DNA of 64,000 nucleotides, from NCBI GenBank assembly GCA_049513715.1, contig JBEKVV010000001.1:320001-384000 (forward strand), written 5' to 3'. Every line of letters starts with the position of its first letter. Position 1 is the first letter of the stretch. This document shows, piece by piece, positions 51,922 to 64,000 of this stretch. This stretch comes from Candidatus Bathyarchaeia archaeon. GTDB lineage: Archaea > Thermoproteota > Bathyarchaeia > 40CM-2-53-6. The translations under genes were made by a program, and so were the position numbers. Under the pieces are notes generated by a model. It saw only the letters and a program-made list of their open reading frames with translations. It did not search any database and was not told the DNA's origin.

Positions 51922-52217
51922 CTTGTCTCTTCACCGCCATGTGAATGAATTGTACACTCCTCGCAGTTAGATCTCTGTGAACTGACGAACCACGGAAGGA
52001 GCCTTTCTCAAGCCCTCTGGAGCGTGTGACCGCGGAGCATTGACATTAGCCATTCCGAATTCAAAAGATGCTTTGTCTTTCCAAATTGAGAGCGCGGCCG
52101 AAGCCAAAGCCAAGGCGGCCCAGAAAAAAGATGCCTAGCATATGTTATACACGAAGAGGAGGGTGAATACACTGGCAGGCTCCAGGCATAAACATCGACT
52201 CGGTTCCGGGTGGAGAT

Positions 52218-52443
52218 TGGTGGGGCCGAAGGGACTCTCCTGGTTCAGGGTGGAACCATTTTGAACCCTCGACTTCCGCCATGCCGTCATGTCTACGGGT
52301 TTCTTCGCTCCTGAAGTTCGTCATTCCGAACTGGTCCGCAAACCCGGAGGTTTGGTCTTCTGGAGCCCTTGGCGGGATCTTTCCCTGTCGTCATCCCTGG
52401 CTAGAGACCGCCGCTCAATCCGAATCATTGCGCCTACGGCCCC
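52218..52443 (-). tRNA. tRNA-Trp(CCA) with five introns (10/11, 28/29, 37/38, 45/46, 59/60) and encoded CCA
   Basis: Six exons (52434-52443, 52387-52405, 52360-52368, 52293-52300, 52260-52273, 52218-52234) join into a canonical 77-nt cloverleaf. Each junction pair forms a BHB-like motif. Confidence 0.87.
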
Positions 52444-52679
52444 ACACGGGTCGCGACAGGGCGGCCCCAACCACAGAGGCGTGGGAAGTTGCTATATGGA
52501 TTTTGGCCCATAGCCGCAGTTGATTTGTCACCTAGACGCCGCCGTGAGGCCAATGTTTTCGGTATGGCCAGCAGAGAGTTGTGCAGCGAAAACGGCGGTT
52601 GGCTTGCACCCACAAAGGCGCGCCGAGCGTCGCCGCCAACTAGTAATATCCGACCAACATCAAATCTATCCGAACAACG

Positions 52680-53894: not shown

Positions 53895-54451
53895 GACCTG
53901 ATAACCTTCAGCAAATCAGCCCTTGTAATAATCCCCAATATGCGCCCTCGCTTGGCAACGAGCACTGCGGGCTCATACTGAAGAAGCGCTGAAACCGTTG
54001 ATAGGGGTGTTTCTTCGCTAACTGTAGGGAAAGCCTCATCCATGATCTTCTCCACTGACTGCTTAGAGACATCGTCCGGGTTTGGGGCGGAAACAAGTTT
54101 CTCAAGGATGATCTTCTCGGTTAGGCTACCGACGACTCGGCCGTCGCTGAAAACCGGCAACTGCGAAAAGCCTGTCTCACGCATGACGCGCACTCCCTTC
54201 GCCACTGTTTCATGTGACTGCACTCCGACGATTTTTCCGTGGCTGACCACTTTTGCCTTCACCTCATTTCGTCGTTCTAGACTCTCCAGGGTGTCGAAGA
54301 CTGCCTTGGTCTTCGTGTAAGAAGGACTAGTCCTTCCGCCCTCAATTTTCGCGATCATGGATTGGCTGACCCCTGCGAGTTTGGCGAGTTGCTTCTGGTT
54401 CAGCGTGAGGAGTCGCCTGCGCCGTCCAATCTCTTCCAGTTTGGGTAGCAT
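53891..54451 (-). CDS. XRE-HTH plus CBS-pair transcriptional regulator
   Basis: QKQLAKLAGVSQSMIAKIE.G..PSY, then SQLPV and GIITRADL. Confidence 0.92.
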   Translation of the reverse strand: MLPKLEEIGRRRRLLTLNQKQLAKLAGVSQSMIAKIEGGRTSPSYTKTKAVFDTLESLERRNEVKAKVVSHGKIVGVQSHETVAKGVRVMRETGFSQLPVFSDGRVVGSLTEKIILEKLVSAPNPDDVSKQSVEKIMDEAFPTVSEETPLSTVSALLQYEPAVLVAKRGRILGIITRADLLKVIRS

Positions 54452-54541
54452 GCCCTACGACCTGTTTCCGAAGGTTATTCCTAGGAGAAATGGATAGGAA
54501 CATAGCTTTTGGAATACTGAATCGTCAAGAAATGAAACAAT

Positions 54542-55027
54542 TTAGGCGCGCCAGGGGTCTACCCGGTCGTAAGTGATCTGTCTAGCTTGGTTCGTGGCTA
54601 TCTCAAACTTGAAATGGTCAACGGGTGGAACGGTGTTCTTCACTAGCATCTCGTCAACTATTTGGCACCAATCACGGAACGACTTTATTATGGCCTGCCT
54701 TGTGACGGGTTTAGCTGTCAGCATCCAATTGAAGAACTTGGCCGTTCGCCCGTTAGGGAACTTCTGCATCGCGGCTTTCATGAGTTGCTTAGAGGTGGGA
54801 ACCGTCGAACGTTTCACGAGTTCAAAGAAGCCTCCATCAGTTGATTCATACCCATGCTTTTCTCTAGTTATCATGCGCTCACGTTCCAATCGGTGAACCT
54901 GCTTCCAAACCGTTCGACTACTCCACTTCCTCCTGAGTGCATATTGGCTGCACGGGCCATGCATTGCGATGTGTTCAAGGATTTCCAGTTCTTTGCCTAT
55001 TGGTTCAAATGATCGCGTCATTCTCAA
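54542..55027 (-). CDS. Winged-helix regulator (putative repressor of the element)
   Basis: ILEHIAMHGPCSQYAL...TVWKQVHRLERERMI...GYESTDGG; divergent from the RHH gene. Confidence 0.65.
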   Translation of the reverse strand: MRMTRSFEPIGKELEILEHIAMHGPCSQYALRRKWSSRTVWKQVHRLERERMITREKHGYESTDGGFFELVKRSTVPTSKQLMKAAMQKFPNGRTAKFFNWMLTAKPVTRQAIIKSFRDWCQIVDEMLVKNTVPPVDHFKFEIATNQARQITYDRVDPWRA

Positions 55028-55028
55028 G

Positions 55029-55052
55029 ACCTGTTTACAGGGGTAAACAGGT
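55029..55052. promoter_or_regulatory. Perfect inverted repeat ACCTGTTTAC-N4-GTAAACAGGT (putative operator)
   Basis: 10-bp arms in the 72-bp gap between the divergent regulators. Confidence 0.7.
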
Positions 55053-55099
55053 AAGCTCCACCTTAAAACTATTAGCTCCTACTACTGAATAATAGGGAA

Positions 55100-55249
55100 A
55101 TGAGTTTGCTCACCATCAGGTCGCTATCCCTAGATGAAAAGCAACTGTCAGAACTCGAACGCGTAGCCAAAGGCGAAGACCGCAGCGTTTCCTATCTTGT
55201 TCGACAAGCCATCAATCAATATCTCAAGAGTAAGGCGGCTGCGTCTTGA
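55100..55249 (+). CDS. Ribbon-helix-helix (CopG-like) protein, 49 aa
   Basis: MSLLTIRSLSLDEKQLSELERVAKGEDRSVSYLVRQAINQYL. Confidence 0.88.
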   Translation: MSLLTIRSLSLDEKQLSELERVAKGEDRSVSYLVRQAINQYLKSKAAAS

Positions 55250-55413
55250 CTTCTTCATCAGCATGCACTTGGTGCTCAAAACAATTCAGGGCAGCCAGCC
55301 AGGAGGAACTTGGGAAACTCATGAACCAACATGAGCCCGCATGCCCGAGGAATCCTAACACTTTCAATGCCGCTTTGCGCCAACTCGTTGATCAGAAACA
55401 GAGGTCGTCCTAG
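55246..55413 (+). CDS. 55-aa C2HC zinc-finger microprotein
   Basis: CTWC...H...CPRNP; TTG start overlaps the RHH stop (TTGA). Confidence 0.65.
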   Translation: MTSSSACTWCSKQFRAASQEELGKLMNQHEPACPRNPNTFNAALRQLVDQKQRSS

Positions 55414-55416
55414 TCC

Positions 55417-55533
55417 TTGGCAATTTCCCTTCCCTGCGTGAAATGCAATCAACCAATCGGTGAACTTCACGATCCAACTTTGGTCGACAAAATCAGTCGG
55501 CATATGCAACTATGCCCAGGAGCCAAACAATGA
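55417..55533 (+). CDS. 38-aa C2HC zinc-finger microprotein
   Basis: PCVKCNQPIGELHDPTLVDKISRHMQLCPG. Confidence 0.6.
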   Translation: MAISLPCVKCNQPIGELHDPTLVDKISRHMQLCPGAKQ

Positions 55534-55634
55534 CTCGTAAGCCTCCGCATGACTTGACGTTAAAGCGAGAACGGGTTTCTAGTGCTGGAACCTCTGCTTA
55601 TGGTTTATTCGGCTGGGGAGATCGAGCCCAATGA
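55530..55634 (+). CDS. 34-aa hypothetical microprotein
   Basis: ATGA overlaps with both neighbours, suggesting translational coupling. Confidence 0.45.
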   Translation: MTRKPPHDLTLKRERVSSAGTSAYGLFGWGDRAQ

Positions 55635-56203
55635 AACGCATAAGGCTACATCACTCAAAGCGGCCTATTACACTGGAGGAGTTAGGGCGCCGAGTTAACG
55701 CAGAACAGAATCTAGCAGACAAAATCGAGGCGACAGTAAAACCTCAGATAGAAGCATACCTCACGGCTTTGAAGTATCCGAAAGGCATGATGTCCACGAC
55801 CGACAGCGCCGAAGTCCGCGACATTCTGAGGCGTATGGAGCGACAGGTTTCCCCCGGTCATAAATTAACCTTTCAAGATGAATCACGAATCGCGAGGACA
55901 GTTGAGGCTATGAGTCAAACCATCGTACCTTTCTCCGACGCGGAAATTGACGAGCAAAGAAAGCAGATTTCCAGTCTAGTATTTACGATGATTCGCTTTG
56001 CCAAGGAAAACCAACGTCTTCAGGATTTGAGAAAAGAGCAACTAGAACTCCTAGAAACTGCGAATAGGCAACTGGAACTTATCACACGCGGAAATGCTTT
56101 GCTGATTTCCCTAGGTGAACTCGAATCAAGATTACCCGCTATAGTCGATAGCTTACACACTTCTCTACCAAAATTCGGCAAACGGTTAGGGGTAGCCTCA
56201 TAG
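55631..56203 (+). CDS. Hypothetical coiled-coil protein
   Basis: Heptad-rich C-terminal half. Confidence 0.7.
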   Translation: MKRIRLHHSKRPITLEELGRRVNAEQNLADKIEATVKPQIEAYLTALKYPKGMMSTTDSAEVRDILRRMERQVSPGHKLTFQDESRIARTVEAMSQTIVPFSDAEIDEQRKQISSLVFTMIRFAKENQRLQDLRKEQLELLETANRQLELITRGNALLISLGELESRLPAIVDSLHTSLPKFGKRLGVAS

Positions 56204-56451
56204 TGGCGTGGGAATTGGGGAAACATATGAACGTCCAAGTCACGGGCTGGGGCGCTAGGTTTCTTCTTTCACCTAGCACAAAAAGGGCGCAAGTTTTCAC
56301 GTCGCGGTCTAGGTTTCCCGCCTCGTGTTGTTTCCTTGCGGCCTTTTCCTGGCGCCTCAACCCGAGACATTCACAATCACAAAGAAACCGGCAGGGAGCC
56401 ACCGGTACAGCGCTTTGGCCCCCGTCTTTGCCCATGTGGAGGCAATGAATT

Positions 56452-57600
56452 TTGATTTTTGCGGATAAACAGGTCTTCAAGGAAACATATGTGCCTGACA
56501 AGATCCTTCACCGAGATGACGCTATCTCAAAGATCCAGCATATTCTAGCCGACTTTCAGAGAAATGCCAAACCTCGCAACATCCTCTGCCTAGGAGGGTT
56601 AGGCACTGGCAAGACCGCTGCCCTTCGCTCTATTTGCAGGGAGCCACCTAAAGGCGTCAAAGCCGTCTTTGTGAACTGCGCCGAAACAAACACCCAGACA
56701 AGAATATTCAGGGCCGTTCTCGAACAACTCGGCGTCACGGTGAAGACCGGATTCCCTGGCGATTATTATTTGGGCTTGTTCAAGGCAGCCCTTCCACCAC
56801 GTCTAATTTTGGTATTTGACGAGGTGGATCGGCTGATTCAGCACAGGGAAAGCGAATACGAGGAATTGTTCTACACGCTGATGCGAACCGTCGACCCAAA
56901 GGAAGTTGTTCTAATAATGCTAACGAACAAGTTCAACCTGGAAACGTTTCTACTCCATGAACTCGACCCTAAAGTTAGGGACACTCTTCCCTTTGAACGG
57001 ATTGAGTTCCCTGATTATATGGCCTCGGAATTGAACGACATCATCTCCGCACGTGCAGAAATAGGATTCAATTCTTCAGCATATGACTCCGGAACAATGG
57101 CTCAAATCGCCCGCATTGTCTACGAACGTGGATTACGGGCTAGAGGGCTAATAGACCTAGGTCGAAAGGCAGGGGAAATGGCGGAATCAAAACAACATGA
57201 GAAAATCACTGAGGAAGACATCAACACAGCAAGCATCGAACTGCTACATGGCCGGAGCCTAGAGGTCATAAATCGGCTTCCACCCAACCTCCGCGCAATC
57301 CTAGCGATCATCCTACTCAAATCACCTATCATTGAAGAGGCTTACAGCCAATTCAAGAAGACTGCGCTTGGAAAAGATGTAACCAAGAACGTGTTCTACG
57401 GCTACCTAAAGGAACTTGAGACATTTGGCTTAGTCGAGAAGAAAACAATCAGTCGAGGATACGGAAGAGGCGTAATGGTTCGCCTCAGCGTAGCCGACGA
57501 ACTCAGAAGCATGGTAGCCGACAGCCTCGCAGACACCACCACCCCACCGGACCAAATGAATTACCACCAACCACTACCACCACTACAACCTACAATATAA
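56452..57600 (+). CDS. cdc6: Cdc6/Orc1-family replication initiator (element-encoded)
   Basis: F.ETYVPDKILHRD, GGLGTGKT, LVFDEVD, sensor segments and a C-terminal wHTH (YLKELETFGLV). Confidence 0.92.
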   Translation: MIFADKQVFKETYVPDKILHRDDAISKIQHILADFQRNAKPRNILCLGGLGTGKTAALRSICREPPKGVKAVFVNCAETNTQTRIFRAVLEQLGVTVKTGFPGDYYLGLFKAALPPRLILVFDEVDRLIQHRESEYEELFYTLMRTVDPKEVVLIMLTNKFNLETFLLHELDPKVRDTLPFERIEFPDYMASELNDIISARAEIGFNSSAYDSGTMAQIARIVYERGLRARGLIDLGRKAGEMAESKQHEKITEEDINTASIELLHGRSLEVINRLPPNLRAILAIILLKSPIIEEAYSQFKKTALGKDVTKNVFYGYLKELETFGLVEKKTISRGYGRGVMVRLSVADELRSMVADSLADTTTPPDQMNYHQPLPPLQPTI

Positions 57601-57670
57601 GAAATGAATGAAAATGTATCACCAGACGACGACAACAAATTCATTTAACGCGCTAGGGGTGGCGGGGGGT
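57534..57670. repeat. Bipartite inverted repeats around an A/C-rich core (candidate origin of the element)
   Basis: CACCACCCC-N8-AAATGAATT (57537-57562) versus AATTCATTT-N9-GGGGTGGCG (57638-57664). Confidence 0.45.
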
Positions 57671-57772
57671 CTTCTTTTGAGTAGAAAGGGAATTACCCGT
57701 AGAACCGGGTCTCTCGGGTCTCATTGTGTGTGCTGTGGTACACAAAACGCCATTATTGGAGGATTCTCCTGA

Positions 57773-58042
57773 ATGAGAAAGAAGATGGGTCAAGCGCGGC
57801 CGGGGAATCAGAACGCCAAGAAGACGCTTGCTTGGGTTGACAGTTTCGATCTAAGTTCCCAGGAGGGTGTCAGGCAGTTTCTTGCGGAGGTTGTCAAAGC
57901 CACTTGGACCGGAGACTTGGGTTCTAGGGCGGCGGGTGCTTTGAACGGGAGCCTTCGCCTTTTGCTGGAACATGAAGTTCTACCGCAACTTGAGGCACGA
58001 ATCAAAGTCTTAGAGGATAACAGGGGAATGAAAGGGAATTGA
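57773..58042 (+). CDS. Hypothetical protein with a terminase-small-subunit-like N-terminal motif
   Basis: GQARPGNQNAKK resembles the GxPxGNxNA motif; C-terminal LEARIKVLE. Confidence 0.55.
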   Translation: MRKKMGQARPGNQNAKKTLAWVDSFDLSSQEGVRQFLAEVVKATWTGDLGSRAAGALNGSLRLLLEHEVLPQLEARIKVLEDNRGMKGN

Positions 58043-58227
58043 CGAGAATCAAGAAGCTGAATGAACGCCTAGACGCTCTTGAGCCGAACCTAGTTTCAAA
58101 GGTAATTCGACCAATCATCTTTCGCGGTCGACGGATTGAGACAGCTCGAGACGTTGATGAAGTCGTGGAGCAGGGAGGCCGAACCTATGCAGCAACCGCG
58201 GAAACCGAGGAGGATGTTCAGAATTGA
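58039..58227 (+). CDS. Small hypothetical protein
   Basis: Overlapping start and stop; N-terminus IKKLNERLDALEP. Confidence 0.65.
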   Translation: MTRIKKLNERLDALEPNLVSKVIRPIIFRGRRIETARDVDEVVEQGGRTYAATAETEEDVQN

Positions 58228-58610
58228 CGAAAATCAGCAACCTTGAGGAACGCGTACATCGACTGAACCAAACAGAGGCAGTTATGCCACCGTTGCCGCC
58301 AAATTCTCAATGCCTAATCGGTAAGCTCGTTATTCGTGCTCTCCTAATCTGTGACCATGAAGACAAGTCGTCTAGTGTTGAGGCTACGAACGAAGAACTA
58401 GAGAAACTCATAGCTGAGGGCGGCGGCGAGAAATGGTGCAACAATCCGGCTGCCGTTGAGTCTCTCCGCTTAAGACGCTGGTTCATCGACCACGACAAAT
58501 TAGAGAACCTGATTCCTCGGCTATGCTACACCACCGAGATTAGCCAGGTTGACCGAGACATAGCGAACCAAGAGCAGAAACTAGAAACGAATCGGAAGGT
58601 AATTGCCTAA
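58224..58610 (+). CDS. Hypothetical protein
   Basis: GAGGA Shine-Dalgarno-like sequence, overlapping start and stop; N-terminus ISNLEERVHRL. Confidence 0.65.
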   Translation: MTKISNLEERVHRLNQTEAVMPPLPPNSQCLIGKLVIRALLICDHEDKSSSVEATNEELEKLIAEGGGEKWCNNPAAVESLRLRRWFIDHDKLENLIPRLCYTTEISQVDRDIANQEQKLETNRKVIA

Positions 58611-58972
58611 TGACGAAATCAGAACTCAAGAAACTAGGGACACGGATTGATTCACTAGAACCTAAACCAGTGAATGCGGCGAATACGCGTAGTGAGCTGC
58701 TTCGTGGCCTCGTAACTCTTGGCGAGGACGATCAAGTATGTCTCGCCTATCTGATTCGAGACCTAGAAAAGGAGAACGTCGAACCAGAGAACTTTGAGGC
58801 TTGGCTTTCTAAGCGGCCCGAGAACCAACAAGCGTTAGCGCGGAAGGTCCTTGCACCTCTCAAAGAAAGACTCGACGCCGGCGCCGCGGAGTTAATGCGT
58901 GATAGTGACCTTGCGAAAGCTCAAGGTCTCACCGAAGAGGCGAAAGGAGACGTGGCAAGTCACGGTGAGTGA
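58610..58972 (+). CDS. Hypothetical helical protein
   Basis: TAATG coupling; N-terminus LKKLGTRIDSLEP. Confidence 0.65.
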   Translation: MTKSELKKLGTRIDSLEPKPVNAANTRSELLRGLVTLGEDDQVCLAYLIRDLEKENVEPENFEAWLSKRPENQQALARKVLAPLKERLDAGAAELMRDSDLAKAQGLTEEAKGDVASHGE

Positions 58973-58975
58973 ATC

Positions 58976-60826
58976 ATGACTATTTCTCGGCAAACCATCG
59001 GCCTAATTCTCCTAGAAGAATGCGACAGCCTCGGGGCTTGGACGAAACAACACACCGCCTCCGCATATCAATCCGTTGACACAACCGATAAACAGTCTGG
59101 CACTGCCTCTTTCCTCACAACATCATCCAATTCGACGAGTCCCTACTATTCATATGGCGCTTTCACTAAACAGTTGAACATGGGGACGGGTGTCGGCAGA
59201 CTCATTCGGATTTTTTACAAGGTCCACAATGCTGGCGTCGGAATAACTGTCGGCGCTTTCGCCGTTTACACAACTGATTGGAAGTCACCTGTGGTCCGTG
59301 TTGGAACCGTCGGGGGCGCGACCACTTGGTCAACTGCAACATATGAAACTCCCGCAGGTAACCCTGAAGGCATACAGAACTGTGAACTCGCCTTCGCCTA
59401 TGCTTTTTCAGGTTCCACCATTCATGCGGATCGTCTCGTAATCTGCCAAAGCAAAAACCTGATCCTAGCGGATCTTGCTGTTGGGCAGACGGTGCTACTC
59501 TACAGGGCCAGCGGCACATTTTTGGACACGCAAACCGTAGCCGCCGGTGCGTCTTCGGTTACGTTCGACGTTTCCGCCGAGAACGTCCCCGAAAACATGT
59601 ACTTCAAAATCTACGCAAGCGACGGCACCACCCTCATCGAAACCACGACCACTTGTGAGATGTGTGGGGGCGACGAATGGACCTGGACCGCTTCGCCGGG
59701 AACTTTGACTTTAGCTGCTGATGCTTTCATTATTCTCGCCTCATCCACAGGTTCTCCCACTGCTGCTCCCTACGTAGTGCGGGCAACGGCTACGCTTAGG
59801 AGACTGAACGGCGACCCCTATACTGGAGAAGCAATTAGCATCATAGTTGGACGCCCCGACGCAGTTACTTATTGTGATTCTAGCCTAACAACTGACTCAA
59901 ACGGGGAAGCATGGTACGAGTTTAATTCCACTGTGGGTGGTCTTCAAGTAGTTGCGGCAATTTGGGGAGGTGACGCCACGGTTCCCGCAGCAACCGTCCA
60001 CGTTGTGGTGCACGTGTTTGCGGCTTTGGAAAAACTGGACAAGAACAAGAACTTTCAGCTATACGTTGAGGGAACCGAGTACGAGTTCAACGGCGGCAAC
60101 TACTACCTTTGCAGCGAGAACGTTCTCGGACAGTTCGAAGTGACGGTTCCAACTTGGCCCGATGTGAAGCCCGTAGTCATGGGGCTTGTTAGCATTTACA
60201 GGAAAGGTGTGAAGGAGTTCGCTGGGGTCCTCAAAATCGTTGAACGCGGTTTACTGCCGAAAACCATTACTCTGACGGGGCCCGACATTTCATGCCTGCT
60301 CGACAGCGTAACCGTAGACTACGAATCCTATTCAGCGAAAACCCCGCAGTATATTCTGAATGATTTGATTACGAAGTTTCCTTGCGGTCTCACGGTTGGC
60401 AACTTGGAAACCTACTCGGGGGATCCGATTAGCCTCGACATATTGAATTTGAAGCTCAGGGAGGCAATCAAGAAGGTTTGTGATGTAGTTGGATGGATCT
60501 ACCGCGTGAACATGGATTACAGCTTCGACGCCGGTTCATCGTTCGGAACCTACAGCAGCGCGGCTTTCGTTGAAGGCGACACCGACAACCCTCTGTTACC
60601 TGGGTGCAGAGTGACCCCGGACTACACAGTTGCCTCCAATGACATTCACAGCCGAGGCGCAGGCGAAGCCAATTCTTCCCTTTCCAGCACAGCCCAAGAC
60701 GCAGCAAGCATCATGGAAATCGGCCCGCAGCAAGCCCCGGTCTTCCAGAAAACTCTGAGCCACCAAGGCACACTTGACACGTCAGCGCGGGCAGAACTGA
60801 AACGCAGAACTCGCCGGACCGCATAA
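58976..60826 (+). CDS. Virion tail/baseplate-hub-like protein with an Ig-like (invasin/Big_1-like) domain
   Basis: Beta-rich, Thr/Ser-rich N-half; TTDSNGEA Ig-like motif; C-half FAGVL..V.....ITLTG.D...LLD..., LREAIKKVCDVVGW.Y.V and NDIHSRG resembles tail hub proteins. No signal peptide. Confidence 0.6.
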   Translation: MTISRQTIGLILLEECDSLGAWTKQHTASAYQSVDTTDKQSGTASFLTTSSNSTSPYYSYGAFTKQLNMGTGVGRLIRIFYKVHNAGVGITVGAFAVYTTDWKSPVVRVGTVGGATTWSTATYETPAGNPEGIQNCELAFAYAFSGSTIHADRLVICQSKNLILADLAVGQTVLLYRASGTFLDTQTVAAGASSVTFDVSAENVPENMYFKIYASDGTTLIETTTTCEMCGGDEWTWTASPGTLTLAADAFIILASSTGSPTAAPYVVRATATLRRLNGDPYTGEAISIIVGRPDAVTYCDSSLTTDSNGEAWYEFNSTVGGLQVVAAIWGGDATVPAATVHVVVHVFAALEKLDKNKNFQLYVEGTEYEFNGGNYYLCSENVLGQFEVTVPTWPDVKPVVMGLVSIYRKGVKEFAGVLKIVERGLLPKTITLTGPDISCLLDSVTVDYESYSAKTPQYILNDLITKFPCGLTVGNLETYSGDPISLDILNLKLREAIKKVCDVVGWIYRVNMDYSFDAGSSFGTYSSAAFVEGDTDNPLLPGCRVTPDYTVASNDIHSRGAGEANSSLSSTAQDAASIMEIGPQQAPVFQKTLSHQGTLDTSARAELKRRTRRTA

Positions 60827-60840
60827 GGAGGCGAATCTGA

Positions 60841-60975
60841 ATGGATGAGTACATTTGCGGCGATTGCGGCGTGAAAGGCGAAGTACCGTTCCGAATTGAC
60901 AGCACTAGACCGTTTTACTGCAAATCATGCCTTGCGAAGCGTCGCCAGAAACGAGACGTAGCCTCGAAGCAGTGA
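60841..60975 (+). CDS. CxxC-x17-CxxC domain microprotein, 44 aa
   Basis: CGDC-GVKGEVPFRIDSTRPFY-CKSC, spacer exactly 17 residues; AGGAGG upstream. Confidence 0.85.
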   Translation: MDEYICGDCGVKGEVPFRIDSTRPFYCKSCLAKRRQKRDVASKQ

Positions 60976-61082
60976 GAATCCTGGACTTGTTCAAGTGCCC
61001 GCATTGCGAGGAACGGTGGCCGTCAAAGGCCTTCTTGAAAGTTCACCTTAGAACCAAGCATCCAAACCCTCCACCCGCCTGA
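60972..61082 (+). CDS. 36-aa C2H2 zinc-finger microprotein
   Basis: FKCPHCEERWPSKAFLKVHLRTKHP; GTGA overlap with the previous stop. Confidence 0.75.
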   Translation: MRILDLFKCPHCEERWPSKAFLKVHLRTKHPNPPPA

Positions 61083-61260
61083 CAGAAAGTCCCGATGTCG
61101 GTACTTTCTCAGTGGGAGTTGTGGGTCTCACAACCTTTCCAGTTCCACCGCAATCGGCGCATTCCTCAAGATACCCGGTAGTTCCCACGATATGCCAATG
61201 CCCAAGAGCTCCTAGGCAAGATATGCAGGTTTCCAATTCTTTCTCAGTCAACCATACCAC
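61048..61260 (-). CDS. Small Zn-finger protein with DnaJ-like CxxCxGxG repeats
   Basis: CISCLGALG...CADCGGTGKV. Confidence 0.6.
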   Translation of the reverse strand: MVWLTEKELETCISCLGALGHWHIVGTTGYLEECADCGGTGKVVRPTTPTEKVPTSGLSVRRVEGLDAWF

Positions 61261-61680
61261 CGAGTCGACCTTCGATCTCGTGGTGACTTAACCGAGGAAC
61301 CTGAGTGAAAATCAACGGTCAGAGATAGATGAAAGAAAAGAAGAACAACTGCGGACTATGCACGCTTATTAGTAGAGAGGAAAATGTTTGATTCCTACAC
61401 TAACCATGCATCCGCCCACAGCGCTCAGAGAAATCACGACCATCAAAGCTAGGCCCATTACGGTCGTTCCTCCGATCGAGCCGACATTAATCATGACGTT
61501 GTAGAGGTAATAGACCAGATCATGCATAAGAACGATCCGGAACGCTTCATCAACGACCGCTCCGTCGAATACCCTGTGTGTCTTGTGATGGTTGTTTCCT
61601 ACACGAATCACACATTTTCAATGAGGCTCTATTCTACACCTAGCACGGAAAAGAGACAAGAAAAAAGAGACGTAGAGACA

Positions 61681-61747
61681 TTAGTACTAATGAGTACTAC
61701 TGAGTACTAATGAAAAGGATGGGAAAAACTAATGGAAAAGATGGAAC
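61681..61747. repeat. Three 10-bp tandem repeats (TNAGTACTAN) followed by two imperfect 22-bp-period repeats
   Basis: ttagtactaa/tgagtactac/tgagtactaa; ACTAATGAAAAGGATGGGAA at 61706 versus ACTAATGGAAAAGATGGAAC at 61728. Confidence 0.65.
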
Positions 61748-61869
61748 ATGTTGTCGGCTAACAATTCGACCGCCTCATGTATCACATGAGCGGTTTCCTT
61801 GGCTTCTTGTAATACCTTCTTACCCGACATGATATGCGCCACGACTATTCAATGTGCGAGTCGCTTATT

Positions 61870-62310
61870 TTATGCTTTCTTCTGAGTCTTAATGGAGGCA
61901 GCATAAAAGGCAGCTCCGATTATAAAGAGTAAAACCCCTGCGACCAAGGTTTGAACCCGCAATTCAATGATTTGTTGACCGGGATAGGTCTGTCCAGTCG
62001 CGGCAAAATAGAAGGCTCGAATACTCCAAGTAATCAGAAAGCTTGCAATCAGACTGCCTATGACTGCTCCTAGCCCTCTAGTTTTCGTCAGCCCTTTTCG
62101 ACGGTCAAGTGTGATGAGCGAAGCCGCTACAAATACGCAGCTCAGAATCCAAGGGGTCTGTAATATGAGCACGGCCGTTATGATGGGCTCTCCATTTTGG
62201 AGGGCATAGGACACAACCCCCCCAGTCCGATATGAATCGGCAATCGTAACAATTATCGCAATGAGACCTAGGAATCCTATAATCACATCAAATAATGATT
62301 TCCCTTTCAA
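61870..62310 (-). CDS. Four-TM membrane protein (element cargo)
   Basis: Four hydrophobic segments. Confidence 0.7.
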   Translation of the reverse strand: MKGKSLFDVIIGFLGLIAIIVTIADSYRTGGVVSYALQNGEPIITAVLILQTPWILSCVFVAASLITLDRRKGLTKTRGLGAVIGSLIASFLITWSIRAFYFAATGQTYPGQQIIELRVQTLVAGVLLFIIGAAFYAASIKTQKKA

Positions 62311-62491
62311 CGGGCAATGCCCCGAAGCATGGATATGGGAGTTGAAGAATTACCTAAAACTGCTTCGAAAGGGCTATCCGACGGTTTTTTACAGCCCTAA
62401 CCATCCGACACCAACTTGAGACAGCCTACCTGAAAGCCCAAGAAAAGAGACGGTCAAAAAAAGAGGAAAGAAAAGACGGGAGGCTAAGTTT

Positions 62492-62851
62492 TCAGCGTTT
62501 GCTCTCAGCCTTCTCCCGGGCCTTGTACATTTCGTTGAGGAAGCGTAGGTTCTCGGCTCCCGCGGTGTCCGGTTTCTCGCCCTTCGCGTCCTTGAAAATT
62601 TCATCCATATTATTTAGGAGACGTAGCCATTTCTGGTCTTTCCGAACCAGCAGCGCGGCGTTTTCCTCTAAGACGGTTTTGATTCCCTCAAGGATCGCCA
62701 TGTCCAAACTAGGGAAGCGCCCATGATTCACCAAGTCACACATGGCCGAGTATGCTAATTCCGGTAGAAGAAAACCGTTCAAGAGCCAGTGATTGACGCC
62801 ATACCAGGCTACCGTGCTATAGTGGCTTCTCGGTTTAGATTTCTTGCTCAT
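62492..62851 (-). CDS. Hypothetical protein
   Basis: Start placed at MSKKSKPR, an ATGA overlap with the SWIM gene; GGAGGTGA Shine-Dalgarno upstream. Confidence 0.65.
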   Translation of the reverse strand: MSKKSKPRSHYSTVAWYGVNHWLLNGFLLPELAYSAMCDLVNHGRFPSLDMAILEGIKTVLEENAALLVRKDQKWLRLLNNMDEIFKDAKGEKPDTAGAENLRFLNEMYKAREKAESKR

Positions 62852-63147
62852 TCTGATTTCACCTCCGCGGGTTTCCGGTGGACCGCGAGATACGCGGCCA
62901 TCCAATGTTTACACGGCAAGCCGGTTACGCTGCCTCTGTGGGTCCAGTCGGGGCAATCGCATGACCGGCCTACTAGGTCCACTTGGTAGGTTTTCGCTGG
63001 GTTGCTTTGACTTCGCACTAGGAACATGCCTGGACCGTTTTCCTCTACGAGATCCACGAGGTTTACGGCTCGGTCTAGGCGGGTGCTTACGCGGAAGAAG
63101 TCGAGTAGTTCTTTCTCGGTTGTTTCGTTCAGAATGAAGCTAGCCAT
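62848..63147 (-). CDS. SWIM zinc-finger protein
   Basis: FLVRSQS..YQVDL...CDCPDW...PCKH. Confidence 0.88.
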   Translation of the reverse strand: MASFILNETTEKELLDFFRVSTRLDRAVNLVDLVEENGPGMFLVRSQSNPAKTYQVDLVGRSCDCPDWTHRGSVTGLPCKHWMAAYLAVHRKPAEVKSE

Positions 63148-63197
63148 AGTGTTTATCCCTGCACACTATAGGTATAAGCATAAACTATTTAACCGTT

Positions 63198-63443
63198 GTG
63201 TATGAATACACAGTACAGATGCCTATGCGATACAAGAACGGAGAAAGACCCAAACACATCACAGAGTGCCTACGCAAGTCTGCCCCTAGAGACCTATCCA
63301 TCGAGGAAATCTCCAAAGAAACCGGCATTCATAGAAACACCGTCTCGAAGTATGTCTACAGTCTGGAGAAAGAGGGCAAGATCGTTTTGACCCGCCAAGT
63401 TGGAGGCGCGAAGTTCTACACGGTCAAAGAGGGTAAGGGTTAG
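63198..63443 (+). CDS. Winged-helix DNA-binding protein
   Basis: LSIEEISKETGIHRNTVSKYVYSLEKEGKI...QVGGAKFY; divergent from the SWIM gene. Confidence 0.85.
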   Translation: MYEYTVQMPMRYKNGERPKHITECLRKSAPRDLSIEEISKETGIHRNTVSKYVYSLEKEGKIVLTRQVGGAKFYTVKEGKG

Positions 63444-63446
63444 GGT

Positions 63447-63617
63447 TTGGAGTCCATCTTGGCCTTCAAGTTAAGCGGCGAATGGATCGACGGCGCCAAG
63501 AAACGAATCGAGATCGCCCACCAAACCCGCCTCAGCAACCCACGCCTAAGCGTCGACATTCTCCTGGAAGTGGTGGGTGAGTTGCTTAAGCGGTTGCCCA
63601 CTGAGACCGAGACCTGA
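63447..63617 (+). CDS. Possible 56-aa hypothetical protein
   Basis: TTG-started ORF fills the gap between the wHTH gene and the integrase stop. Confidence 0.4.
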   Translation: MESILAFKLSGEWIDGAKKRIEIAHQTRLSNPRLSVDILLEVVGELLKRLPTETET

Positions 63618-63623
63618 ATTTCT

Positions 63624-63998
63624 CTAGGCCTTCTTGTCTTTCGGTGTCTCTTTCCGTTCGCTTGGCACAAACGGGTGTCCCTTTTCGTCGCTCACTATGA
63701 AGCCTGAGGTGGCTTGGAGCATTCGAACCGCTAAGCGCAACTGCGCAACTTCCTCTTTGAGGGTTTTGACTTCTTCGCCGCTTGCCATTGCGGGACCGTA
63801 GACTTGCCGGAGTTCGCCCCACATCCAGGGTTCATCGTTGTAGCATTGAATGTACCCTTTCTGATCCAAGATATGGCCCAGCGCGAACTCTGAGGCCTCA
63901 AACGAAATCTTCTGCAAAGTGCATCTGGTCCTGAAACAGTCTCGTAGGTCATGCAACGTGACTCGTGCTTTAGGTGGAGGAATCGGCGCCCTTTTCAG
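63624..63998 (-). CDS. Tyrosine recombinase/integrase, C-terminal part (runs off the window end)
   Basis: Frame is open to the window end: ...RVTLHDLRDCFRT...EFALGH...KGYIQCY, matching the HxxR...GH...Y catalytic motifs. Confidence 0.88.
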   Translation of the reverse strand: MKRAPIPPPKARVTLHDLRDCFRTRCTLQKISFEASEFALGHILDQKGYIQCYNDEPWMWGELRQVYGPAMASGEEVKTLKEEVAQLRLAVRMLQATSGFIVSDEKGHPFVPSERKETPKDKKA

Positions 63999-64000
63999 AG

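Follow-up and report, generated by a model that had tools for sequence, protein, structure and literature searches.

The stretch of DNA analysed here (the window) comprises 64,000 nucleotides of a Candidatus Bathyarchaeia archaeon from peat (GenBank assembly GCA_049513715.1, contig JBEKVV010000001.1); in our coordinates the source genome is G000, the window is G000:C1:320001-384000, and L-numbers are labels of compared loci. Its right end is occupied by an integrated element of 10,274 bp, bounded by 12-bp direct repeats. A sequence-only reading had described there, from left to right, a winged helix-turn-helix (wHTH) gene divergent from a ribbon-helix-helix (RHH) gene, zinc-finger microgenes, a coiled-coil protein, the initiator Cdc6/Orc1, a candidate origin, an open reading frame (ORF) resembling a terminase small subunit (TerS), three small helical ORFs, a tail-hub-like gene, further zinc fingers, membrane cargo, a divergent SWIM/wHTH pair and a tyrosine integrase. 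This order holds in the sequence and in Pfam and PHROG scans. The same scans recognised no major capsid, portal or large terminase (TerL) gene in these roughly 10 kb: no capsid-morphogenesis gene was matched in the element, several of whose small ORFs match no family.

The left attachment site (attL, 54478..54489) has 3-bp inverted arms around a 6-bp core and lies 27 nt 5' of the start of a host HTH-CBS gene. Its partner attR was found 740 bp past the window end (G000:C1:384740-384751, L001:12740-12751), in the region where a search for att repeats and structural genes had been advised, and lies 25 nt upstream of the integrase start. The integrase (363 aa; 3' part at 63624..64000, minus strand; phrog_1, E 8e-8) runs 715 bp past the window to G000:C1:384715; it keeps the H-x-x-R motif and the distal His and Tyr, and has Gly at the box-I Arg, likewise in three relatives checked. 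The host genes 3' of the integrase are, as named from sequence, metK-like, membrane-protein, ValRS-like and SSB-like, and no capsid, portal or TerL gene is found among them.

The element is thus inserted between the HTH-CBS gene and metK. Our empty-site survey obtained a metK match in 15 of 30 relatives, all 15 from the 18 same-genus genomes searched. The site is uninterrupted in eight of these 15, where the HTH-CBS gene abuts metK over about 140 nt holding the same palindrome of inverted arms and 6-bp core; another five have different DNA, about 0.15-5 kb of it, in this place, and of the remaining two one has different neighbours and a break at the palindrome while the other ends at a contig end. 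Eight empty and five otherwise occupied sites among 15 relatives therefore mark the HTH-CBS/metK site as an insertion hotspot. The element itself is present at 100% identity in three other assemblies. We also observed a conserved TATA-like box in the interval between the divergent HTH-CBS gene and metK, about 25-30 nt from attB (window 54440-54490; L001:12716-12830). Once the element is inserted, the integrase start is 25 nt away from att, in the place of the HTH-CBS start, which was 27 nt away, and the host promoter may thus come to drive the integrase. Another palindrome of similar form overlaps this box, possibly as an operator for the HTH-CBS protein.

The gene most informative for the nature of the element is an ORF of 89 aa (57773..58042, plus strand), which the earlier reading had called TerS-like. 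By itself it matches no Pfam or PHROG family, and the ESM Atlas places it at 0.92-0.94 in virus-leaning clusters that bear no family name; the label stands on the gene context of its homologs, of which 16 were found at 57-76% identity. In the provirus L062 a homolog directly precedes the TerL, portal and capsid-position genes, in L063 it is fused to TerL, and in L023, L120, L122 and L123 it precedes TerL, with one small ORF between the two in L091. Because these homologs precede TerL or are fused to it, we regard the 89-aa ORF as a probable TerS. A search with an alignment (A2) of this ORF and its two paralogs from G000 gave matches in 10 of 401 genomes of the class and at 56 metagenome loci, three of which represent this element, leaving 53 further TerS loci with a common layout. 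The reading had asked for syntenic elements of the same size and held that a lack of them together with signs of decay, or morphogenesis genes past the integrase, would speak against a satellite; the relatives are many and such genes are absent there.

The layout of the family comprises an integrase, a wHTH gene and, divergent from it, a small regulator, then a replicon, TerS and the coupled small ORFs, followed by a variable slot; often the relatives also carry the SWIM gene, the 81-aa wHTH gene (wHTH81) and the 56-aa gene. The replicon is exchangeable and of at least three types: Cdc6 in L077 and L082, primases in L087 and L109, and helicase-like genes in others. When capsid and portal sequences were used as tblastn queries against 68 loci only L062 matched, and a PHROG scan of 70 of the 96 listed ORFs of at least 230 aa (the other 26 were judged by eye to be host genes or replicon pieces) found neither protein in the element ORFs. 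The ratio of nonsynonymous to synonymous substitution rates (dN/dS) is 0.17-0.22 for three TerS pairs and 0.18-0.20 for two small-ORF pairs, and in the slot 0.23 for a putative chaperone and 0.24 for the tape measure. With values near 0.2 for most pairs, TerS and most of the slot and small-ORF genes appear to be under purifying selection.

Two sibling elements were observed in the same genome. L023 (G000:C2:20325-27868) is a 7.5-kb element with TerS and a full TerL, devoid of capsid and portal genes, whose integrase is 57% identical to that of the element; L024 (G000:C2:114871-about 127100) carries TerS, the motif described below and much cargo. There are in addition two TerL loci without capsid or portal, L157 (G000:C4:146125-148245) and L156 (C11:1332-2802); one of the pair is a minimal cassette of an RHH-like gene, a 126-aa ORF and TerL among tRNA fragments, and the TerL of the other is 58% like that of a same-genus virus.

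Upstream of terS lies a conserved 12-bp motif, SGTACACAAWWC (57737..57748, plus strand), the only copy in the window, within the interval that the earlier reading had proposed as origin. It emerged when the regions upstream of terS were compared by k-mers, so that it is defined on the same sequences in which it was counted, and it stands at the 5' end of terS in 35 of 49 unique TerS loci versus 0.006 expected per region. Among the 35 loci it lies in one reading frame in 22, in another frame in seven and outside the ORF in six, including this element, and is therefore conserved as DNA. G000 contains three strict copies, at two terS genes and one terS remnant; this 5' remnant, which retains the motif, lies at G000:C1:66059. 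Counted over whole genomes the motif is not enriched (11 matches in 23 genus genomes versus 12 for the reversed control), which rules out a genome-wide element and confines the enrichment to terS; from the more distant TerS-TerL loci it is missing. Packaging (pac) sites are often located within terS or close to it, and the motif is a candidate pac or TerS-binding site. Alternatively it could be an element of an operator or promoter; a Sigma-70 promoter scan, a model unsuited to archaea, stayed at chance level. For comparison, the pathogenicity islands of Staphylococcus aureus (SaPIs) encode their own TerS, which recognises their genomes (PMC11417361; here and below, statements on published work refer to the portions of the cited papers accessible to us).

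Directly after terS follow three translationally coupled small helical ORFs of 62, 128 and 120 aa (58039..58972, plus strand), each of which starts with an N-terminal helix motif of the family; homologs are found in L087, L099 and L082. Of 47 unique first ORFs after terS, 29 open with a Leu-x-x-Arg-hydrophobic helix, for the most part at a -4 overlap, against a background of 31 in 1262 long genome ORFs, which belong to a different length class. As one candidate helper TerL opens with a similar helix, the small ORFs might conceivably mimic the start of the helper TerL and block or adapt the helper terminase.

What follows the small ORFs varies from element to element, and the slot carries tail or terminase genes. 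L102 and L113 have a putative chaperone and a tape measure, L087 has the chaperone and a tape-measure-like ORF of 813 aa that matches no profile, flanked by homologs of the element's 128-aa ORF and treble-clef gene, and L059, a broken member of the family, has the chaperone alone. L117 has a tape measure upstream of terS, L115 and L116 have part of one there, and in some members the slot holds TerL. The name chaperone is a label from gene position. Its family (45 matches, one of 401 class genomes) shows 46-47% identity among elements and 18-20% to viral genes at the same position. In the tape-measure tree L113 and L102 group together (99/100), and a single origin of all four element tape-measure genes is neither shown nor excluded. 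Two relatives have radical-SAM genes in the slot after TerS (L084:1695-2591 and L085:3194-4087).

In our element this position holds a gene of 616 aa (58976..60826, plus strand) with an N-terminal beta-sandwich and Ig-like domains, which the earlier reading had taken for a tail hub. The structure model (pLDDT 77.5) finds the MuSo2 tail protein 3cdd (E 9e-8) and Mu gp44 (1wru, E 7e-7) as top Foldseek matches, and by this model the ORF has a genuine Mu gp44-type baseplate-hub fold. The fold thus stands, but the C-terminus is truncated: all 33 homologs aligned to its end run on for another 76-83 residues (about 77 are missing), and the missing part was found neither downstream in any frame nor elsewhere in G000, which rules out a frameshifted or displaced C-terminus. 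Judged by the architecture of gp27 and gp44, the truncation presumably removes most of the second barrel, on which the hub ring depends. What is left of the protein shows no visible decay, with 93 of 116 conserved positions kept compared to fractions of 0.70-0.94 for 17 homologs; dN/dS of the hub is saturated and uninformative.

Hub sequences gave 108 matches, self included. Eight IMG/VR contigs of 20-30 kb carry the gene, which follows a long gene in the five that were mapped; in L030 this position is confirmed as a tape measure. Full-length hubs occur in head-tail virus regions of three same-genus genomes. A hidden Markov model search detected the hub in 17 of 401 class genomes, whereas a single-protein pattern search of genome contigs gave no hub match. 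Among the elements, L079 has an internal hub piece, L093 and L089 have C-terminal hub ORFs that stand alone and possess a start of their own, and the present element has its truncated copy. A further stand-alone hub C-terminal ORF of 130 aa was seen at L218:6666-7397 (G304:C19), beside a Dit-like gene and outside any obvious virus. With the last 76-83 residues missing, it is doubtful that this copy brings a tail or adsorption component of its own, as had been suggested. We lean slightly towards a relic; a blocker of tail assembly is possible though clearly behind, and a working hub would be rather surprising.

The left end of the element carries its switch. The wHTH regulator (161 aa, 54542..55027, minus strand) is a putative repressor with weak Pfam HTH matches below cut-off and 40% identity to the gene at the same position in L113; the divergent RHH protein (49 aa, 55100..55249, plus strand) is clearly recognised (PF01402, E 2e-8). 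Between the two, as described earlier, stands a perfect palindrome with 10-bp arms (55029..55052), equalled in only one of 2000 shuffles and a candidate operator; a 12-nt half-site of it is repeated in inverted orientation within the first codons of cdc6 (56466-56477). The zinc-finger microgenes claimed left of the coiled-coil gene are the weakest item of the earlier description: the 55-aa ORF (55246..55413, plus strand), whose status as a gene is uncertain, shows one C2HC-like pattern by eye and no Pfam family. It is followed by a 190-aa helical, coiled-coil-like ORF (55631..56203, plus strand) with no Pfam or PHROG family.

Cdc6/Orc1 (56452..57600, plus strand) was recognised correctly (Cdc6_lid, E 2e-10; Walker A at residue 48, Walker B at 119). 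It belongs to a mobile-element clade, with 27% identity to the host enzyme and 22 homologs at 33-79%; in whole genomes relatives were matched in three of 105 genomes of the order, G000 included. After cdc6 an A-rich tract and a G-string (57600..57670) form a candidate origin. The G-string is present 3' of cdc6 in all three Cdc6-TerS elements compared, the region shows a loose likeness to boxes of the origin recognition box type upstream of the host cdc6, and an origin at this place, just upstream of the motif, is possible.

At the right end three zinc-finger microgenes (60841..61260) encode a treble clef (plus strand), a C2H2 (plus strand) and a CxxC protein (minus strand); the treble clef at 60841 passes Pfam (PF23477, E 1e-9), but the other two stay below the cut-off. 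The cargo consists of an 80-aa ORF and a hydrophobic membrane-type ORF of 146 aa (61369..62310, minus strand), both with weak family matches. Then come a 137-aa ORF and the SWIM zinc-finger protein of 99 aa (62492..63147, minus strand; PF04434, E 9e-8), with homologs in L112 and L077, and the 81-aa wHTH (E 3e-8) and 56-aa proteins (63198..63617, plus strand), common to several family members.

Elsewhere in G000, which is 99.4% complete by markers, no match was obtained to the capsid family phrog_10, the portal family phrog_12 or capsid and portal proteins of fetched viruses. More integrase-bearing islands lie at G000:C5:85608-98097, C1:94647-124522 and C3:166055-181371, with direct repeats of 17, 19 and 28 bp; two of the three carry restriction-modification-like cargo. 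In the window a probable intron-rich tRNA gene, not called by ARAGORN, was noticed at 52100-52500 (minus strand), adjoined by a repeat of about 40-60 nt with several further copies in the genome. At G013:C4:about 79800-106000 (L148, L149) TerL is divided between two ORFs within a head-tail morphogenesis block, near which no integrase was seen; as TerL of G033:C29 is split in the same way, the split may be a family trait rather than decay.

Taken together, the element probably belongs to a family of integrative satellites that exploit tailed (Caudoviricetes-type) viruses of Bathyarchaeia, comparable to SaPIs and to the phage-inducible chromosomal island-like elements (PLEs). We favour this reading because of the att repeats and empty sites, the same-sized relatives lacking capsid genes, the TerS assigned by context, the cis motif, the purifying selection and the PLE-like tail slot. 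In such a cycle the wHTH repressor would hold the divergent switch off until a helper infection leads to excision, and the element would replicate by means of its Cdc6 and the host helicase. TerS would bind the 12-bp motif and recruit the helper TerL, so that element DNA is packaged into helper heads as in SaPIs, while the coupled small ORFs, with their TerL-start-like helix, might obstruct the helper terminase or adjust it. Chimeric tails would be built in relatives by a chaperone and tape measure of their own, as in PLE11. A wider claim, that such satellites of head-tail viruses are widespread in Bathyarchaeia and combine SaPI-style packaging (TerS, 12-bp pac site) with PLE-style tail remodelling and a blocking of the helper by TerL mimics and split or truncated hubs, we put forward only tentatively.

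Several observations weigh against a satellite. Excision, packaging and a matched helper were not seen, and the cycle outlined above is a proposal. The check for excised circles advised earlier gave nothing: in contigs (which drop rare forms) of four of 24 runs, which may be the source of the genome, depth is flat and neither a joint nor a circle junction occurs, and the predicted junction has no match in IMG/VR. Nor did CRISPR spacers help, the sole array-like match in G000 being a protein-coding repeat (spacers of other genomes were left out). No member of the TerS or chaperone families was confirmed in IMG/VR, viruses in same-genus genomes with the hub in common gave no match to the A2 family, the motif was not found beside terminase genes of candidate helper viruses, and none of 40 viral motif matches lies near a family TerS. 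Two Cdc6 relatives in whole genomes have an integrase and a wHTH gene but neither TerS nor motif, and TerS is therefore not universal among the neighbours of this replicon. The hub pieces are incomplete in all four elements carrying them. Only 22 of 52 metagenome loci reach 3 kb past terS, and clear end repeats were seen in two of 14 relatives (L117, 8.5 kb; L091, 13.3 kb), with 11-bp repeats in four. Finally, one TerS pair has a dN/dS of 0.49 and one small-ORF pair of 0.43; dS is near saturation in the pairs compared, and the selection may predate capture.

Part of this evidence is what one would expect of integrative, plasmid-like cryptic elements, which replicate themselves and gather virus debris, with TerS and the motif as passengers or serving gene regulation. 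The mosaic of replicons and integrases, the Cdc6 relatives that have no TerS, broken members such as L059, the fragmentary hubs and the lack of excision in the contigs of the four runs all fit such elements, as does NitKor-E1, which has TerS and TerL only and is interpreted as a relic (PMC6563490). Debris, however, would not retain TerS, a cis motif that crosses reading frames and the -4 coupling in dozens of diverged elements, with dN/dS near 0.2, and nearly every captured gene is one for packaging or for the tail, at one position. We therefore consider this explanation unlikely, if the strongest of the alternatives. Less probable still are antiviral islands, in which TerS, the small ORFs and the truncated hub would be dominant-negative decoys of helper packaging and tail assembly and the element itself would stay unpackaged. 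The recurrence of partial hubs in the slot, among them the C-terminal ORFs of L093 and L089 with their own start, speaks for decoys, as do the conserved positions of our hub, within the range of intact homologs, and the Tai tail blockers common in bacterial satellites (PMC11364771). A decoy, though, needs no conserved cis motif, replicon, full-length TerL or tape measure, and interference and self-packaging are usually coupled in satellites.

The decayed provirus that had been offered beside the satellite, one that lost most of its morphogenesis genes, is improbable. The hub is indeed truncated and stems from tailed viruses, in which its place is after the tape measure, and same-genus proviruses with broken genes exist; but except for three TerL genes elsewhere in the genome no other trace of morphogenesis is found in the element or in G000, the other element ORFs are open, the gene order is that of the small relatives and not that of viruses, and the viral stretches compared share no replication or regulatory gene with the element. 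The family data largely refute decay for this element. An ordinary provirus continuing past the integrase is ruled out by the host genes there, which include no capsid, portal or TerL gene.

Turning back to the satellite reading, the closest bacterial models are the phage-inducible chromosomal islands (PICIs), to which SaPIs belong. They share with the element the integrase, divergent regulators, a replicon, an own TerS, a size of about 7-13 kb, the absence of capsid and portal and accessory genes after terS (PMC10085698). An integrase with an att-flanked chromosomal island and a small terminase subunit (by gene context), by which PICIs are recognised, are present here, while the capsid, portal and TerL that mark a Caudoviricetes provirus are not. 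For the capsid-morphogenesis gene of PICIs, which type B lacks, no match was obtained among ORFs several of which are small and unassigned. The element differs in its archaeal host, in regulating by wHTH and RHH proteins with no homolog of AlpA, MerR or Stl, in having Cdc6 and no primase-replicase module (primases occur in L087 and L109), and in its hub gene, as the PICI model forbids tail genes (PMC10085698). Its integrase lies at the far end with Gly in place of the box-I Arg, and homology to PICIs is not shown at the sequence level.

PLE11, a satellite of the Vibrio phage ICP1 with a tape measure, a chaperone and a hub (PMC12987554), provides the model for the tail slot. PLEs resemble the family in a partial tail pathway whose chaperone, tape measure and hub are about 20-40% like virus genes, and in a short conserved packaging signal (PMC12987554, PMC11417361). 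An own tape measure and chaperone are seen in the relatives L102 and L113, whereas this copy has a truncated hub only. In contrast to PLEs the element has a tyrosine integrase, a gene of the TerS family, a variable tail slot and an incomplete hub; moreover the PLE signal mimics that of the helper, while the motif of the element was not found by candidate helper terminase genes.

In archaea, NitKor-E1 is a cryptic integrated thaumarchaeal element with integrase, TerS and TerL and, according to the accessible text of PMC6563490, no other virus gene, a gene set like that of L023, L063, L091 and L120. It is treated there as an enigmatic relic that stands alone, and neither a family nor a cis motif or tail slot is described. 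pSSVx, pSSVi, SRCE (10.1101/2025.02.15.638363) and the putative NMV2S (10.64898/2026.08.12.739948) combine, like the element, a plasmid-type replicon with an incomplete morphogenesis set; the first three differ in parasitising spindle-shaped viruses and NMV2S in being a 3.8-kb circle tied to a head-tail virus, for which the part of the preprint at hand names no terminase or tail gene. A literature search including PMC10848311 (in whose accessible text the word satellite does not occur), PMC13573593, PMC9618062 and the two preprints, supplements aside, revealed no such family in Bathyarchaeia. What the present analysis adds is the TerS family with its cis motif, together with the coupled small ORFs and the slot that the elements have in common.

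The archaeal satellites described in these sources are those of spindle-shaped viruses and one putative small circle for a head-tail virus. If our reading is true, the PICI/PLE strategy would extend to Archaea, by way of an integrative family that carries TerS and resides in an abundant archaeon of sediments. Thanks to the 12-bp motif and the 89-aa TerS, this claim can be tested in vitro, with no need for a culture of the host. It would also explain the terminase-only archaeal elements that have been read as relics, and would provide a route of gene transfer in Bathyarchaeia.

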